The notes beneath the pieces are model-generated. The model ran no database searches. It was not told the origin of the DNA and saw only the letters and a program-made list of their open reading frames with translations. Both the position numbers and the translations under genes were made by a program. 20,449 nucleotides of DNA from a virus: UHGV virus genome UHGV-0138820; one strand, given 5' to 3'. This document shows, one piece after another, positions 240 to 7,900 of the stretch. Every line of letters starts with the position of its first letter. The stretch's first letter is position 1.

Positions 240-712
240 ACCTCACTCTCTCTGAGCGTTCCGCCAGCTTCTTTGAATTTTGCAATCAGGCTGTCAGCCT
301 TATGCTCGAACTGACCATAACCAGCGCCCGGCAGTGAAGCCCAGATATTGCTGCAACGGTCGATTGCCTGACGGATATCACCGCGATCAATCATCGGTAA
401 AGCACCACGCTCTTTAATCTGCTGTAATGCCACTGCGTCCTGGCTTTTGGGGGAGAAGTCTTTCAAACCAAGCTGTTTACGGTAAGCATCCCACCAGCGT
501 GAAAGAAGCTGATAACGTCCGGCGGCTGTTGATTTGAGTTTGGGGTGTAGCGTGACAAGTTTGCGAGGGTGATCGGAGTAATCAGTAAACAGTTCGCCGC
601 CAACAATAACATCATAACCGTGGTTACGTGTCGGTTGTCGCCCGTTATCCGTTCCTTCTGACCACGCCAACATATCGAGGAAGGCTTTACGCTGAGGATT
701 AAGATTTTGCAT
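236..712 (-). CDS. R: Endolysin R (lambda R-type lytic transglycosylase)
   Basis: 158-aa ORF; the sequence ...[48 protein letters not shown]... matches lambda R as recalled. It sits between holin and Rz as in the lambda lysis cassette. Confidence 0.9.
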
Positions 713-1016
713 TTTTCACCCCTGTCAGTCGTTCCCAGAAGTACGTCAGTGCAACCGAACCCATCGCACCACTAATCCCCGCTGTCGCGAGAATCATGTA
801 AATACTGAATCCACTTTCGATGCTGATCAGGCCACCAATAACACCGGTGAATCCTGATACCACTATTTGAGCCAGAGCATTTATCCAACTCCACGTTGCT
901 TTACTCTGCTTCACATCTATCAGGTAGCGGACCAGACCGCCCCAACCTGCGATGATCAGCAAAACGAGCCAGAACGCTCCGGCAAGGCTCTCTTTTTCGT
1001 GCATATGAATAGCCAA
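699..1016 (-). CDS. Putative holin (three predicted TM segments); start uncertain (TTG at 1016 or ATG at 1004)
   Basis: Lies immediately upstream of R and overlaps its start by 14 nt. Three hydrophobic helices are visible (LAGAFWLVLLIIAGWGGLV, WINALAQIVVSGFTGVIGGLISI, FSIYMILATAGISGAMGSVAL). It is not lambda S by sequence, so the call is positional and topological. Confidence 0.6.
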   Translation of the reverse strand: MAIHMHEKESLAGAFWLVLLIIAGWGGLVRYLIDVKQSKATWSWINALAQIVVSGFTGVIGGLISIESGFSIYMILATAGISGAMGSVALTYFWERLTGVKNAKS

Positions 1017-1118
1017 TGTTTCGCCGCCGACAAAAGGCCGGGACGTTAAATGTCAGAAATCAGGCTCACGGGGTAATTTAACGACAAAGCACGGAGTTGA
1101 TGCTCCCCGCAAGCCTGG

Positions 1119-1144
1119 AATAAAAAAGCCAGCATGTAGCTGGC
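1119..1144 (-). terminator. Rho-independent terminator candidate (minus strand) between Q-like gene and holin
   Basis: On the minus strand: GCCAGC-tacat-GCTGGC followed by TTTTTTATT. Confidence 0.5.
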
Positions 1145-1221
1145 AACAGAGGGTTAAGCAATATCAACTCAACAACTGAAGACACCCTGGCTGGGGTAGG
1201 TTGGAAGGCTACTCACCGTTC

Positions 1222-1258
1222 AGAAACAGAAAAGCCCAAGGCTTTAAACCTCGGGCTT
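1222..1258 (-). terminator. Rho-independent terminator candidate (minus strand), possible tR'-like site downstream of Q-like gene
   Basis: On the minus strand: AAGCCCGAGG-tttaaa-GCCTTGGGCTT (10-bp stem with one G-U pair) followed by TTCTGTTTCTG. The stem is weaker on the plus strand (A-C mismatch). Confidence 0.5.
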
Positions 1259-1266
1259 GAATTTGG

Positions 1267-1302
1267 ATTACTGCCAGTGCGTACAACATTGGCAAAATAT
1301 CA
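1267..1302 (-). promoter_or_regulatory. Candidate late promoter (PR'-like) downstream of Q-like gene
   Basis: Two alternative sigma70-like arrangements on the minus strand: TTGCCA-N17-AGTAAT (1295..1267) or an extended -10 TGaTATTTT (1302..1294). Positional inference only; the first would place the start site inside the downstream hairpin. Confidence 0.25.
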
Positions 1303-1325
1303 GATTTACATAAAATATATGATTT

Positions 1326-2015
1326 TTAATCCAGTTTTGCAATATCTTGCTGTGAAAATATGGTCTTTTGTTTTGAACGTGTTTTCGTTAAAAGCAATAA
1401 AGCTTGGCTATCAAGCTGTAGAAAAATGTGCTTCATTGCAATCCAGCGTTCAGTAAATGTCTCAGACCAGTTTTTTGATGTCACTCCCACCAGTGATGCC
1501 AGCTCCTGGTATTCATAGGTCTTACGCCCTGCCAGCTCGTTCTTCACATCCTGTGCCGCCAGCCAGATCAACTTCTTCAAACGTTCCAGTGTTTTACCTG
1601 CAATTTTCCTGGTACCCAACAGAGTCTTAAACTCGCTCCATGCCCACTGCGTTATGGTGACCTGATGTTCCCAGCGAACACTTTCGCTGTAACTCCACAG
1701 CAACCACGCTTTCTGATGTTCTTCGAGAGACAGAACCGCGCGGCGCCATGACGAGGTTGAGAACTCAACCTGGCTGACCAGTGCAATGGATGAACCTTTT
1801 GCGTACAACTGCTTACCGGAAATCGGCGGATTATCCAGCGTAATCATCCTGCCAGTTACCTCATCCAGAATGCGCGGCTTCTTTCGTTTGTATGTACCAG
1901 TATCAAATTGTGCATGCTCCAGCCAGGCTTCAAGCTGTCCTTTCGTTGCTCCGCTCAAATCAGCGGTAGCCACAATGAGTTGCTCGCGGACATACTGTAA
2001 ATATTGGGTATTCAT
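1326..2015 (-). CDS. Putative late-gene antitermination protein Q (positional assignment)
   Basis: 229-aa ORF between ylcG/rusA and the lysis cassette, where lambdoid phages carry Q. Its ATG overlaps the ylcG stop (ATGA). It has no cysteines, so it is not a lambda/82-type zinc-finger Q; family unverified. Confidence 0.5.
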   Translation of the reverse strand: MNTQYLQYVREQLIVATADLSGATKGQLEAWLEHAQFDTGTYKRKKPRILDEVTGRMITLDNPPISGKQLYAKGSSIALVSQVEFSTSSWRRAVLSLEEHQKAWLLWSYSESVRWEHQVTITQWAWSEFKTLLGTRKIAGKTLERLKKLIWLAAQDVKNELAGRKTYEYQELASLVGVTSKNWSETFTERWIAMKHIFLQLDSQALLLLTKTRSKQKTIFSQQDIAKLD

Positions 2016-2511: not shown

Positions 2512-2798
2512 GCCTTAATTACCCCCTCTTTCAGCCAGATAACCTGTGTTCTCGCCATACCTTCCAGCGCACATTCTTTTGCATATCCAGCGTCAACAAA
2601 ATGCGTGCGACGGTCGATTTCGTCGTGGCAGGCAGAACATGCAATGGTGGCAATCAGGTCTGGCGGTTTGATACCGGTACCGCACAATCCAGCCAGCCGG
2701 ATATGTGCCAGTACTGACGTTTCAGGATTGCCATTACATACGCCAGGGATTCTTACCTGGCATTCCCGACCACGCGCTGCTTTTCTCAAGTCAGCCAT
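2508..2798 (-). CDS. ybcO: YbcO-like protein (DUF1364, putative nuclease)
   Basis: The track ORF 2508..2837 contains [35 protein letters not shown]..., matching YbcO (96 aa). The internal ATG at 2796-2798 is chosen as start because it overlaps the ninE stop. Confidence 0.85.
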
Positions 2799-2961
2799 GA
2801 TTCCTCCTTGCTGCCAGTCGCAACCATTTTTTATCAACCAGGCTGGCGGTATATCCGAGCAGTGTTGGTATTTCGGATGGTTTCAGCTCAGGCTTACGCT
2901 TACGACGATTTGGTACTCTGTAGATGTGTCCGTTCATGACACGAATAAGCGGTGTAGCCAT
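2791..2961 (-). CDS. ninE: NinE (56 aa), not in the supplied ORF track
   Basis: Own translation: [56 protein letters not shown]. Its ATG shares one base with the ybcN stop (TAATG). Confidence 0.85.
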   Translation of the reverse strand: MATPLIRVMNGHIYRVPNRRKRKPELKPSEIPTLLGYTASLVDKKWLRLAARRNHG

Positions 2962-3416
2962 TACGCCTCCTGCTTGTCGCGCAGCAGCTGGAACTCGCAG
3001 CTCTGCGGAATAGTCAGGTGGCAGCCAATATTCACCGCCCAGGCTTCAACCTTACACAGGAAGACATACATCTCTCCGGTATCGAGATCGGAGGTATGGC
3101 GTAACGACTGGATAGTAGTGATTTCGCCGGTTACGACATCAACCAGGTCCTTGGTTTCATAACCGAGGTATGTGTGTTTGAGAGCATCTTTTACCCATGC
3201 TGCGGTAGCGAACGATTTCCCCCTGCTGATGAGGTATTCACTGATTTCGCTGTACCACATGTGGCTGAGTGCATTCTGGGAAAGACTGCGTTTCTCACGC
3301 CACGGTTTAAGCACCATGCGAAAGCATTTTCCGTTCTCCAGATAAGGCTGGATCTGCTGGCCGATAGCGATGAAGTTACCGCGATGCAGTTTGATGCCAT
3401 CTTGTGGTAGGTTCAC
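2961..3416 (-). CDS. ybcN: YbcN-like protein (NinB-position DNA-binding protein)
   Basis: 151-aa [61 protein letters not shown]..., near-identical to E. coli YbcN as recalled. Confidence 0.85.
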
Positions 3417-3863
3417 GCTTCACCTCCACAGAGGTCAGACGCTGGATGCAAAAAAACGCAGGTGCATTTCTGCATCTGTGAAGGGAGAAGAGAGTTTGGA
3501 TTGTGTGTGCGCATAAACGTCCCCGTTTAGCGCAGAAGTCACCGGAGTTGTTCAGGCTCCGGTGATACAATTATGGCGAATTGATTATTCATAATCAAAC
3601 AAGATAAGGTCTCAAACTTCATGCAAGCCAAGATTTATTTCTGACAGAATTATACAAAGAAGCTATTGGTCAGAATCTACTCGGACTGTAAAACATACGC
3701 ATAACCTTAAGCTCTCACTTTAAGCATTGTTGAAATAATAGCCGTCAAGTACAACCTTAACCACGACTGGGATATTTTCCTGGCTACCACGAGTTGTACG
3801 GCTATTAAACTGCCGTTAAATTCAGTAAGAGAATTTCATCCGATAAGTCAAGGCATGTAAAAC

Positions 3864-4907
3864 ATGAAAATTAACAAGATATTATCATCTGCAACACTAT
3901 TGTATGGTATGTCAATGGCCATGTCGGTCGGGAGTTGTGCAACACCTGTCCAGACTAATCTTCCTGGTTACACCCCGGGTGCAGATATCATTAGTGTTTC
4001 ACCGACCAGAAACCAGGTCGATCTCATTGGTGATGTTGTTTATTCCCAGATAAAAGGAACTCGTTCTGTCAGACAGCTTCACATGTCAGTTCTTGTCCCG
4101 CGAACAAATGATTTAAAACCAGCCATTATTTATTATCCCGGCGGCGGATTCATGTCTTCTGAACATGACAAATTTATTGAAATGAGAATGGCTCTGGCAG
4201 AAGCTGGTTTTGTTGTGGCCGCTGTAGAATACAGAACAATTCCTGATACATTTCCAGCACCAGTTGAGGATGGAAAAGCTGCAATACGTTACCTGAGAGA
4301 GCATGCCAGCAATTATGGGATTGATCCTCAAAGAATCGGAGTTCTGGGTGACTCTGCCGGTGGATGGCTTGCCCAGATGATGGGAACTACAAATGGTGAC
4401 AAAACCTTTGATAAAGGTGACTTTCTTCAGCAATCCTCAGATGTTCAGGCAGTTGCCACACTTTATGGGATTTCTGACTTGTTGAATATTGGCGAGGGGT
4501 TCCCTGAATCAGTGCAGGAGGTTCATCGCTCTCCTGCCGTAACCGAAGCCTTAATGATCAATGGCCCTGCATTCAGAAATTTTGCGGGAGCCCCCATCAC
4601 AGCGTCAAAAGAAAAAGCGCTAAACGCCAGTCCAATCGGACATATGAAAGGAGTAAAACCCCCATTTCTTATTATGCATGGTAGCAAAGACACTCTGGTT
4701 TCACCTGAGCAAAGCGCCAAACTATTCAGGATGTTGAAGAAGAACGGTGATAACGCTGAGTACGTGCTGGTAGAAGGGGCCGAGCATGGCGATAAGACAT
4801 GGTATCAGCCAATTATTATAAACAGAGTCGTTGAGTGGTTTACTAAAAACCTGGGAGCGCCTATAAAAACAGCTCCCCAACAACAAAACCCAAACGCTAA
4901 CCTGTAA
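3864..4907 (+). CDS. Secreted alpha/beta-hydrolase esterase/lipase, family IV (HSL-like), possible lipoprotein
   Basis: 347-aa ORF with an N-terminal signal peptide (possible lipobox Cys25), oxyanion-hole motif YYPGGGF, nucleophile elbow GDSAGG and a C-terminal EGAEHG carrying the probable catalytic His. Lower GC than the flanking phage genes. Confidence 0.75.
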   Translation: MKINKILSSATLLYGMSMAMSVGSCATPVQTNLPGYTPGADIISVSPTRNQVDLIGDVVYSQIKGTRSVRQLHMSVLVPRTNDLKPAIIYYPGGGFMSSEHDKFIEMRMALAEAGFVVAAVEYRTIPDTFPAPVEDGKAAIRYLREHASNYGIDPQRIGVLGDSAGGWLAQMMGTTNGDKTFDKGDFLQQSSDVQAVATLYGISDLLNIGEGFPESVQEVHRSPAVTEALMINGPAFRNFAGAPITASKEKALNASPIGHMKGVKPPFLIMHGSKDTLVSPEQSAKLFRMLKKNGDNAEYVLVEGAEHGDKTWYQPIIINRVVEWFTKNLGAPIKTAPQQQNPNANL

Positions 4908-4943: not shown

Positions 4944-7900
4944 TTAACTATCCTTTTCAGGTAGTTTTACAACATAAGTCCTTATTGTTTTCTCATATGT
5001 ATTTTTGCTATTCGTTATTTTGGCCTTAATCCAGTGATAACCACTTTCATAGGTGCTGAATTCCGAAGCTGCATTACCTGTCCAGTGTAACGTTACTGTA
5101 GCAGGCTCCATTTTGACCCGTTGAGAGTCTGGACTATCTTCACTACCAGCAGAAAACTCAACCGTACCAGATAATGGGTTTCCAAAATGATCGACAAATC
5201 GAGCATAAATACCTACTGGAGATCCATCGTTTGTCTCATAACCAGGATCTTTTGTTAGAGTCAATACTCCATTTGCGTCATCAGCGTACAGGGAGAATGA
5301 TTTCACCGCGCTAACATCACTGCCAAGTTCGTTTAAGGTCGCCGTTAATTTATACGAACCAACCGTTCGACCATGTACGCTTACCGTAGCCTGACCGTTC
5401 TCATCAGTCGTTACTGTGGTTTTATCAACCACCAACGCACCATATTTAGACGGCCCAGATGTCTTAACATTCAATGCTCGACCACTTAATGCTTCGCCTG
5501 ACTTACTTTTCAACAGTAACGTAAATACCAGATTGTTGGTATCGCTCACTACAGCCGAAGATGCAGATGATGTGATCTCCAACACAGCCCCCTTCACATC
5601 CGTCACGGCATCAATATTCTGGCTTGCGGTTATGCGTTTCCCATCCAGAACATACTCGGCCTGAATTGTGTACTGGCCTGATTTCGATGCAGTGAACTGC
5701 GTTGTTGCCTGTCCATGAGCATCCAGTTGCAGATTACTACTGGTCAATGATGCTCCCGTCGATGGTGTAATCGTTAAATCCACCTCGCCTGTAAACGCAT
5801 TGTTATTCGCATCAACCAACTGAATGTTTACTGTTGCGTTTTCACTGCCATCGGCCACAATCTCCTGTTTTGATACACTCATATTCAGTTCTGCAGAAGC
5901 AACATCGGGCACAAAAGTTAACTTAACGCTGCCAGATTCCACGCTATGGGAACCGTCAGTCACCCGTGCAGTCACCGTGTACTCACCAGCTTTCACCGTT
6001 GTAAGCGGAACAGAAACATGCCCTGTTGAATCAGTCACGATATTTGTTGGTACAGATAATCCTTCAGATGAGGTGATGAGCTGAATCTTTTGCCCATTGA
6101 CCGACGCATTCGTATTTGTCAGCTGCACATCTAATACCGCTGCATCCTTACCATTAGCAGGAATATTGGAAATTAAACTACTGCTTTCAGGCGTCAGTGA
6201 CAGTGAAGCTCCGGTCATATTTGATGCAAAGGTCACTGTTAACTCAGTAGACATCTGAGAACCAGCATGAGCTGTAATCACGTAAGACCCCGGAGTGGAG
6301 CTTATTAACGCAAAAATAGCATTACCATTTTCGTCAGTTGAAACAGCATGTTCACCACCAACTTGAGTTATCCCTGCTGGTAAAGACAATGTGACAGCAT
6401 AACCAGGAACAACATTGCCGAAACGGTCCGCAAGGCTTACAGTTACCATATTTCTCTGTTTTCCATCAGCCAATGCATTATTTTGGCTGGCTTCAAACTG
6501 AGAGAATGTAACCTGCTGCCGGTCCTCAATAAAGGTGATTTCTTTCTTAACACCTGAGAAATCATGACTATCAGATTTAACACCGATAGTAATCTTACCA
6601 GCTCGTTTTGAAGTTACTGTCGCGCTATAGACACCGTCTTTTTCCGTTACAGTCCCAAACTCGACTCCTTCTGCCTGGTTAAGAGCATAAAAGCTCAGAG
6701 TGTTATCACCAGTGATTGCATTTCCTTGTGAATCCTTCACTGCCAGTTGTAGATTGATATTGTAACCAACTACCTGTTCTGCTGGTGCAGCGGTTAAAAC
6801 AGCACTGACCTCAGAATCAGGTTCTGTTGCTGCTGTTTGCTTAATACTGAGAGTAAATGTTTTTCCCTGAACTTTTGCAGTTACACGTACCGTACCAGCC
6901 TGCGAACCAGCAGCCAGAACAGAGCGATATACACCAGCAGAGATTTCCTCTACCGCGCCTAATGACGGAGCAGTTACCGTTTCACGCTGTCGAGCACTAT
7001 TGCTATCTGCTGTAAATTCCACTGACATTTCAATGTCATCAGCCAGTCCGGTTAATGCCTTACCGTTACTATCTTTCAGGCTTAATACTATCGGATAAGT
7101 GGATTGGCTATCAGCAGAGATCGTCGGCGACGAATCTCCATCCAGTGTAAAAGACGAATCAGCTGTCGATACATCACTATCAGTAATGGCTGCCTGCTTA
7201 ATATTCAGAGTAAAGGTTTTTCCCTGAACTTTTGCAGTTACACGTACCGTACCAGCCTGCGAACCAGCAGCCAGAACAGAGCGATATACACCAGCAGAGA
7301 TTTCCTCTACCGCGCCTAATGACGGAGCAGTTACCGTTTCACGCTGTCGAGCACTATTGCTATCTGCTGTAAATTCCACTGACATTTCAATGTCATCAGC
7401 CAGTCCGGTTAATGCCTTACCGTTACTATCTTTCAGGCTTAATACTATCGGATAAGTGGATTGGCTATCAGCAGAGATCGTCGGCGACGAATCTCCATCC
7501 AGTGTAAAAGACGAATCAGCTGTCGATACATCACTATCAGTAATGGCTGCCTGCTTAATATTCAGAGTAAAGGTTTTTCCCTGAACTTTTGCAGTTACAC
7601 GTACCGTACCAGCCTGCGAACCAGCAGTCAGAACAGAGCGATATACCCCAGCAGAGATTTCCTCTACCGCGCCTAATGACGGAGCAGTTACCGTTTCACG
7701 CTGTCGAGCACTATTGCTATCTGCTGTAAATTCCACTGACATTTCAATGTCATCAGCCAGTCCGGTTAATGCCTTACCGTTACTATCTTTCAGGCTTAAT
7801 ACTATCGGATAAGTGGATTGGCTATCAGCAGAGATCGTCGGCGACGAATCTCCATCCAGTGTAAAAGACGAATCAGCTGTCGATACATCACTATCAGTAA

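Follow-up and report, generated by a model that had tools for sequence, protein, structure and literature searches.

The late control region described here lies in a stretch of viral DNA of 20,449 nucleotides (nt; UHGV virus genome UHGV-0138820, referred to below as the window), between a gene for a Q antiterminator and the holin gene that is the first of the late genes. The genes on either side are all on the minus strand and follow the order of a lambdoid nin/late junction: NinB (2961-3416), YbcO (2508-2837), RusA (2149-2511), a YlcG-like open reading frame of 46 amino acids (2012-2152) and the Q gene are followed by a gap of 309 nt (1017-1325), a holin gene of the LydA type and a lambda R-like lysozyme gene (236-712). 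This layout bears out the initial annotation, made from the sequence alone, which had described 1017-1325 as non-coding DNA separating a Q-like gene from a holin gene. The same gene order, with 99.7% identity across the gap, is found in PhiR47_2, a propagated Escherichia phage, and the gap is present in 816 of 5426 complete Escherichia coli genomes, O157:H7 strains among them. The features discussed below are collected in Table 1.

Table 1. Features of the late control region and the genes flanking it (positions in the window)
Feature	Position	Strand	Description
Q antiterminator gene	1326..2015	minus	229 amino acids, no cysteines, phage 82 type; Pfam PF06323, E 2e-93
Predicted late promoter pR'	1314..1342	minus	-35 TTGCAA 1342-1337, 17-nt spacer 1336-1320, -10 TATATT 1319-1314; from promoter scan
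Inferred transcription start (+1)	1307	minus	first A of AAA; fits all published 82 pR' positions
Putative sigma70-dependent pause module	1282..1302	minus	match to the description in PMC5001585
Leader hairpin A	1271..1295	minus	UGCCA...UGGCA, +13 to +37; in the minimum-energy leader fold
First intrinsic terminator (predicted; tR' of 82 type)	1222..1258	minus	12-pair stem 1258-1232, interrupted U run to 1222
Second intrinsic terminator (predicted)	1118..1144	minus	GCCAGC-TACAT-GCTGGC then TTTTTTATT; stem 1144-1128, 6 pairs
Conserved stem-loop	1059..1117	minus	13-pair outer stem CAGGCUUGCGGGG/CCCCGUGAGCCUG, loop with GUGCUUUGUCGUUAAAU; about 60 nt
Holin-proximal leader, small hairpin about 1045-1022	1017..1045	minus	just ahead of the holin start codons
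Holin gene (LydA type), first late gene	699..1016	minus	Pfam PF16083, E 8e-22; holin S in the PhiR47_2 annotation

The Q protein of the window is 96.9% identical to Q of phage 82 (X92588.1), 99.1% identical to that of PhiR47_2 and 86.5% identical to that of phage 434. Its sole Pfam match, PF06323, is the Q82 family, one of three families of Q proteins that lack sequence similarity to each other (PMC9388147). That the protein has no zinc-finger cysteines had been remarked on in the initial annotation; this is correct, and is simply a trait of the Q82 family. No related solved structure was detected by sequence search with this Q.

A promoter scan called the sequence TTGCAA-17-TATATT as a predicted promoter overlapping the 3′ end of the Q gene. 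In phage 82 the wild-type transcript from the late promoter pR' starts with AAA, and the -10-like element that induces pausing is closer to consensus than that of lambda and is accompanied by an extended -10 motif (PMC5001585). The same work describes a GCC discriminator at +15 to +17 and pausing at +25/+26, where the 3′ end of the RNA is the U at +25, with a G at -11 from the pause, no G following it, and a spacing such that a one-base insertion at +18 would place a G at the pause site (PMC5001585). Every one of these features is present in the window when +1 is placed at 1307. The sequence from this position is AAATCTGATATTTTGCCAATGTTGTA, with AAA at +1 to +3. It is followed by TG at +6/+7 (1302-1301), a -10-like TATTTT at +9 to +14 (1299-1294) and GCC at +15 to +17 (1293-1291), so that the pause element of the window reads TGATATTTT plus GCC. 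The predicted pause falls on U +25 and A +26 (1283/1282), with G at +24. The window thus encodes a nearly identical Q; it has a predicted sigma70 promoter overlapping the Q stop codon, all the features described for the initial transcribed region of 82 pR' correctly spaced from it, and a terminator further on. The Q-binding element of this system is located between -35 and -10, within the region from -31 to +30 (PMC4914094), and the spacer at 1336-1320 should therefore contain it if the alignment with 82 pR' is correct. The core of the spacer, AACTGGATTAAA, is conserved in the window, phage 434, Gifsy-1 and ENT1, and is variable in other phages of the Q82 family.

The linkage between Q and this site was examined in 80 viral contigs encoding a Q that is 85-100% identical to that of the window. 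Homology to the window continued past the Q stop codon (1328-1326) in all 80 of them. It then either spanned the whole gap or ended at 1293, 1284, 1282 or 1272, most often at 1293 (+15) or 1282 (+26); in two contigs it ended at 1228, past the first terminator hairpin. The absence of any break before 1293 would be expected if Q were passed on together with its DNA site as a unit; DNA beyond the pause site appears to be exchanged between phages with this Q. Downstream of about +26 the carriers are mosaic, so phage 82 itself may have other terminators and another lysis leader than the window. Around a dozen contigs (L033, L040, L049 and others, at about 2735-3900) carried, past +26, a different leader of about 1.2 kb, flanked by the same Q and pause module and the same holin start, and no obvious terminator was seen in the first 140 nt of this leader.

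More distant members of the Q82 family, with Q identities of 48-100%, were also compared: PPompW, ENT1, RCIP0114, Klebsiella phage 2 LV-2017, ST11-VIM1phi8.1, phiES15, 434 and Gifsy-1. All of these contain a TTGCAA-like -35, a TATATT-like -10, a TGnTAT pause element and a G+C-rich discriminator, and a terminator is found in every leader at about +35 to +110; that of ST11-VIM1phi8.1 can be seen to be related to the first terminator hairpin of the window.

A terminator scan of 600-2200 returned 7 sites, compared with 1.7 +/- 1.3 in shuffled sequences. Two of these are the minus-strand hairpin and U-tract structures noted in the initial annotation, and both have the make-up of intrinsic (Rho-independent) terminators, a G+C-rich stem-loop followed by a U run on the transcribed strand. 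Hairpin 1 (1258-1232) carries the tail TTCTGTTTCT and folds with -18.4 kcal/mol (z -4.6; 0 of 200 shuffles as good), and hairpin 2 carries the tail TTTTTTATTC, with six U residues, and folds with -11.9 kcal/mol (z -3.8; 1 of 200 shuffles as good). Both stems were fully paired in all of 29 distinct close variants taken from viral contigs (unpaired cells: 0/348 for hairpin 1, 0/174 for hairpin 2). The stem substitutions were all C to U opposite G or G to A opposite U, and hairpin 1 showed one double change from G-C to A-U; all the changes preserved pairing. Hairpins related to hairpin 1, of the form AAGCCC...GGGCTT, occur in VIM1phi8.1, UPF_BP1 and mEp237. The laboratory terminator t500, which derives from the phage 82 terminator, probably has the sequence AAAGCCCGCCGAAAGGCGGGCTTTTCTGT, seen in an unlabelled primer, and shares AAGCCCG...GGGCTTTTCTGT with hairpin 1.

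Transcripts starting at 1307 are predicted to be about 82 nt long if they end at hairpin 1 (about 1226) and about 187 nt if they end at hairpin 2 (about 1121). The initial annotation had proposed a short 6S-like leader RNA of 65-170 nt from about 1290; a terminated leader of this kind is indeed expected and has precedents, although with the start at 1307 its sizes differ from those given. Phages 21, phi80, 82 and P22 are recorded as producing short terminated RNAs from their late promoters (PMC7547250). At minimum energy the leader folds into two hairpins, hairpin A (+13 to +37) and the terminator. Hairpin A was unpaired in only 1 of 261 cells among the 29 variants, and in the isrJ model of Rfam it is represented by the first helix. 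The GCC discriminator is part of its 5′ arm, and the hairpin would form immediately past the +25 pause. Other stems are seen at the same position in leaders of the Q82 family (UUUUGCC/GGCAAAA, GCUGCC/GGCGGC and GUCGnC/GnUCGAC), and 434 and phiES15 seem to have no stem of this type.

A tRNA scan and an Rfam scan at gathering thresholds gave no match anywhere in the window. In a permissive scan, the Rfam family isrJ (RF01393), a 74-nt Salmonella small RNA detected by Northern blotting, gave a full-length match at 1310-1231 with an E value of 3e-4 to 9e-4 and 30.4 bits, less than the Rfam gathering score; isrJ of Gifsy-1 itself scores 100.3 bits. The promoter of Gifsy-1 isrJ, ATTGCAAAACTGGATTAAAAcggcTATATTTTATGTAAATCTGATA, and the window agree at every position between -36 and +14 other than four spacer bases adjoining the -10 (lower case). 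The two leaders therefore have the same promoter save for these four bases, the same first 14 transcribed bases and the same two-hairpin architecture ending in a terminator, and Gifsy-1 encodes a Q that is 69% identical to that of the window. They differ in the middle of the RNA and in the terminator stem. They also differ in that a module lies between Q and the promoter in Gifsy-1, where the isrJ promoter is located about 850 nt downstream of the Q gene. The DNA inserted at the end of Gifsy-1 Q contains isrK, a C4-type antisense RNA with its targets, and the antirepressor gene anrP; the DNA just past Gifsy-1 Q, when aligned with the window, gave no match, this stretch being the inserted isrK/C4 module. 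The stretches concerned in the Gifsy-1 sequence (L085) are 2198-2396 and 3047-3121. IsrK, directly past Q, overlaps matches to the Rfam models of C4 antisense RNA and of the a1/b1 targets, which suggests that an antirepressor control module of the P1 type has been inserted between Q and its promoter.

IsrJ is an RNA of about 74 nt seen under all conditions in lysogens (10.1101/787010), and in the StxS paper it is IsrK, not IsrJ, that is credited with being regulated by antitermination (PMC7547250). The comparison above suggests that in Gifsy-1 a late promoter of the Q82 type gives rise to IsrJ as its terminated leader. No paper equating IsrJ with a Q82-type late leader was found, and this connection may be new. 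On this view IsrJ, for which an effect on Salmonella invasion has been reported, would join StxS and lambda 6S RNA among the by-products of antitermination control. The leader of about 82 nt may in turn be the E. coli counterpart of IsrJ; roughly 15% of complete E. coli genomes have it, and an action in trans, as for StxS, is conceivable. The reported role of IsrJ in invasion is not transferable to the window leader.

The logic of the region is the same as that of lambda PR'-qut-tR' with its 6S RNA and of StxS: a constitutive promoter, a sigma70-dependent pause, loading of Q and a short RNA in lysogens. The components are different. The lambda Q family (PF03589, with a zinc finger) is unrelated to that of the window (PF06323, without cysteines), the pause is at +16/17 in lambda and at +25/26 in the 82 type, and the leader is 194 nt in lambda and 258 nt in the StxS precursor compared with about 82 nt here. 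The hallmarks of a lambda-type qut, namely a PF03589 Q, AACGAT with GGG and a pause at +16/17, are absent from the window. The initial annotation had called the region a PR'/qut/tR' analog, which is right in kind, as this is a late region controlled by Q; rather than an analog, however, it corresponds to the classical phage 82 system itself, as judged from the Q identity and the fit to 82 pR'.

It is thus very probable that the gap is the late-gene control region of a lambdoid prophage of the phage 82 type. RNA polymerase carrying sigma70 would start constitutively at pR', with +1 at 1307. Sigma70 would then rebind the extended -10-like element at +6 to +14, causing a pause at +25/+26 (1283/1282). 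Without Q, polymerase would escape from the pause and stop at hairpin 1, yielding the two-hairpin RNA of about 82 nt that would correspond to lambda 6S and IsrJ. Polymerases leaking through would meet the canonical hairpin 2 with its six U residues and release an RNA of about 187 nt, ahead of the lethal holin gene. Q82 would bind the promoter spacer, join the paused complex and render it resistant to terminators, and the modified polymerase would be expected to pass both terminators and the stem-loop at 1117-1059 into the holin, lysozyme and Rz genes. We propose the start, pause and antitermination steps because of the identity with a system whose mechanism is experimentally established, and a back-up role for hairpin 2 because this hairpin persists while its sequence turns over and because the U run of hairpin 1 is interrupted. 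The core of this finding is already known: the region is one more copy of the phage 82 switch, a model for sigma-dependent pausing and antitermination. The window and the near-identical PhiR47_2 provide the natural, full-length 82 context with both terminators and the lysis leader, which laboratory templates usually replace.

Several points weigh against the scheme. The match to 82 pR' is to features described in words, since the public phage 82 record ends with Q. Hairpin 1 may be a terminator of modest efficiency, given the interruption in its U run (UUUUCUGUUUCU). By the Rfam rule the leader is not a member of isrJ, the match falling short of the gathering score of 37. Finally, hairpin 2 might not be needed here and could be a passenger of the lysis-module leader.

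The initial annotation regarded the double terminator as unusual. This proved not to be so, as the same layout, with two successive terminators, sometimes separated by a gene, ahead of the holin gene, was found in mEp237, UPF_BP1 and Gifsy-2, all of which have Q proteins of other types. In the P22-like UPF_BP1, the first terminator AAGCCCTGAGG...CCTTGGGGCTT-TTTTGTGG is followed 160 nt further on by GCTCGC...GCGGGC-TTTTTTATTC. In mEp237, AAGCCCTGCGG...CCGTGGGGCTT-TTGCGTTTCT is followed by a gene, then by GCCCCG...CGGGGC-TTTTTTATTT and the holin gene, and in Gifsy-2 a lambda-type pause element (AACGATGGG) is followed by the first terminator, a small gene and the second terminator. The second terminators of all three phages lie just upstream of sequence matching 1117-1059 of the window. 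A module comprising the second terminator, the stem-loop and the lysis genes is common to the window, mEp237, HK225, Gifsy-2, UPF_BP1 and many Klebsiella prophages. The Q genes of these other carriers, and with them the promoters and pause sites, are of other types than those of the window.

This distribution bears on whether terminator 2 has a role of its own. Module exchange might instead have brought it in, either as the terminator remaining from an accessory gene or simply as the leftmost part of the lysis leader, and the off state would then be set by terminator 1 alone. The genes between the two terminators in mEp237 and Gifsy-2 would fit such an origin, as would contigs (L117 and L196) in which two copies of the stem-loop flank a small gene or a reversed accessory gene, and judging from the homology blocks 1170-1060 forms a mosaic piece of its own, common to phages of other Q types. 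However, of 72 distinct contexts of the stem-loop, 62 have a terminator-like hairpin with a U run immediately on its 5′ side, and these hairpins comprise 47 different sequences, indicating that terminator 2 is maintained while its sequence turns over. In the lineage of the window itself it is invariant save for one wobble change, and behind the interrupted U run of terminator 1 a back-up makes sense ahead of a lethal holin gene. We consider a terminator 2 without a role of its own to be possible and rather unlikely.

Hairpin 2 directly adjoins the stem-loop at 1117-1059, with only a few nucleotides between them. The stem-loop folds with -27.6 kcal/mol (z -4.5). A third and weaker site returned by the terminator scan, at 1111-1090, is the inner part of this stem-loop and not a terminator. 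Viral contigs were scanned for the loop motif GTGCTTTGTNGNTAAAT, which returned 120 stretches; about 30 of 122 matches to the 17-mer loop pattern were discarded as chance occurrences in unrelated contigs. With a covariance model derived from the commonest clade, 88 copies were detected in 91 sources (for example L083:1511-1587 and L206:2501-2576, in the range L083-L206), HK225, mEp237, Gifsy-2 and many Klebsiella prophages being named carriers. The window type is divergent, and was matched by the model at 1120-1046 with 43.9 bits; other types matched by it have stems such as CCCAGACCC/GGGUCUGGG and GUGCCG/CGGCAC. In the model-based alignment 91.7% of the cells were paired, compared with 23-37% when the partners were slid, and seven stem pairs changed on both sides, with 0-1 of 500 shuffles reaching the observed values. 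These figures come from an alignment that was itself fitted to the model and from a set collected with the loop motif as seed, and about four clades contribute to the covariation. The model-based alignment was used because plain alignment (MAFFT/RNAalifold) recovered only part of the helix, the clades differing by a bulge. The loop, GUGCUUUGUyGwUAAAU, is nearly invariant while the stem covaries between clades. The invariance of the loop is partly built in because the collection was seeded with the loop motif.

The stem-loop is usually located 30-60 nt ahead of the holin start, and the families of the holin downstream, as well as those of Q, differ between carriers. No Rfam match was obtained at the stem-loop position in the window or in Gifsy-2, and a full-text literature search for the stem-loop motif and for sequence strings of the window yielded no relevant paper. 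The stem-loop is thus the only new lead beside the known late switch, and the unit of terminator and stem-loop ahead of lysis genes may be new.

Terminator 2 and the stem-loop could together act in cis as a single RNA device, regulating the lysis genes once transcription is past the Q checkpoint; processing or stability of the mRNA and translation of the holin are examples of what it might control. Their tight adjacency and their usual position shortly before holin genes of varied families would suit such a device, and so would a stem that covaries between clades around a nearly invariant loop. Against this, the sequence indicates no mechanism, the seeding with the loop motif partly explains why the loop is invariant, and the covariation is limited to about four clades in an alignment fitted to the model. 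Moreover, in the L055/L102 lineage, which the model missed, the loop is kept and the outer stem is weak, as would fit a role at the level of DNA or of primary sequence. That the stem-loop and its 5′ terminator hairpin are an undescribed structured RNA element gating or tuning holin expression, whatever the Q family, is a tentative suggestion to which we give less than even weight, and a role as one device is similarly doubtful. The unit is widespread and unannotated, and if functional it would be a second checkpoint for the lysis genes independent of Q type. Inspected by eye, the stem-loop fitted none of the DNA elements considered, namely promoters for sigma70, sigmaE or sigma54, an RfaH ops site, an IHF site or a DnaA box. 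Nor did a small open reading frame fit: the one of 29 codons from the ATG at 1135 was rejected, as it lacks a ribosome-binding site and its substitutions show no clear preference for third positions (5 of 9).

The late promoter had initially been placed at 1267-1302, and a promoter formed by TTGCCA (1295-1290), a fair -35 hexamer, at 17-nt spacing from AGTAAT (1272-1267), with a start near 1260-1290 and RNAs of 65-170 nt, is highly improbable: the promoter scan does not call it; its -10 has no A at position 2; a start about 7 nt past 1267, near 1260, would fall inside the 5′ arm of hairpin 1, so that this terminator could not form; AGTAAT lies beyond the end of the Q-linked homology in other prophages (1282-1293) and so is not inherited with Q; and TTGCC overlaps the published GCC discriminator of the transcribed region. 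The stretch 1267-1302 is instead the pause module and the transcribed sequence that follows the pause, the real promoter being 40-50 nt upstream.

Two further sequences around pR' are found on the plus strand. At 1337-1350, 11-24 nt inside the 3′ end of Q, there is a TTGC-N6-TTGC repeat, and the same position in the phage 434 record is annotated as a CII-binding site together with the -35 of an antisense promoter, paQ. As the repeat overlaps the -35 of pR' (1342-1337), binding of CII could also block the late promoter. The best sigma70-like match of the region is TTGGCA-16-TAAAAT at 1289-1316 (10/12), which points into Q and lies antisense to the region of the pR' start; as this DNA is A+T-rich and partly palindromic, the match may be due to chance.

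At the downstream end of the gap, translation of the holin could start at the TTG at 1016 or at the in-frame ATG at 1004 (MAIHM...). The small hairpin upstream of these codons folds with -11.8 kcal/mol and a z score of -1.7, which alone is not significant. The stretch 1017-1045 is kept in L055/L063 and in the L033 type, ahead of the same holin start. The dual start and the small upstream hairpin are reminiscent of the arrangement of lambda S.

Just past the prophage nin region, the window contains an invasin/intimin-like open reading frame of 1540 amino acids on the minus strand (4944-9566), with four near-identical tandem repeats of about 100 amino acids (TDSDVSTADSSFTLDGDSSPTISADSQ...). It is adjoined by a gene on the plus strand (3864-4907) for a predicted esterase/lipase of 347 amino acids.

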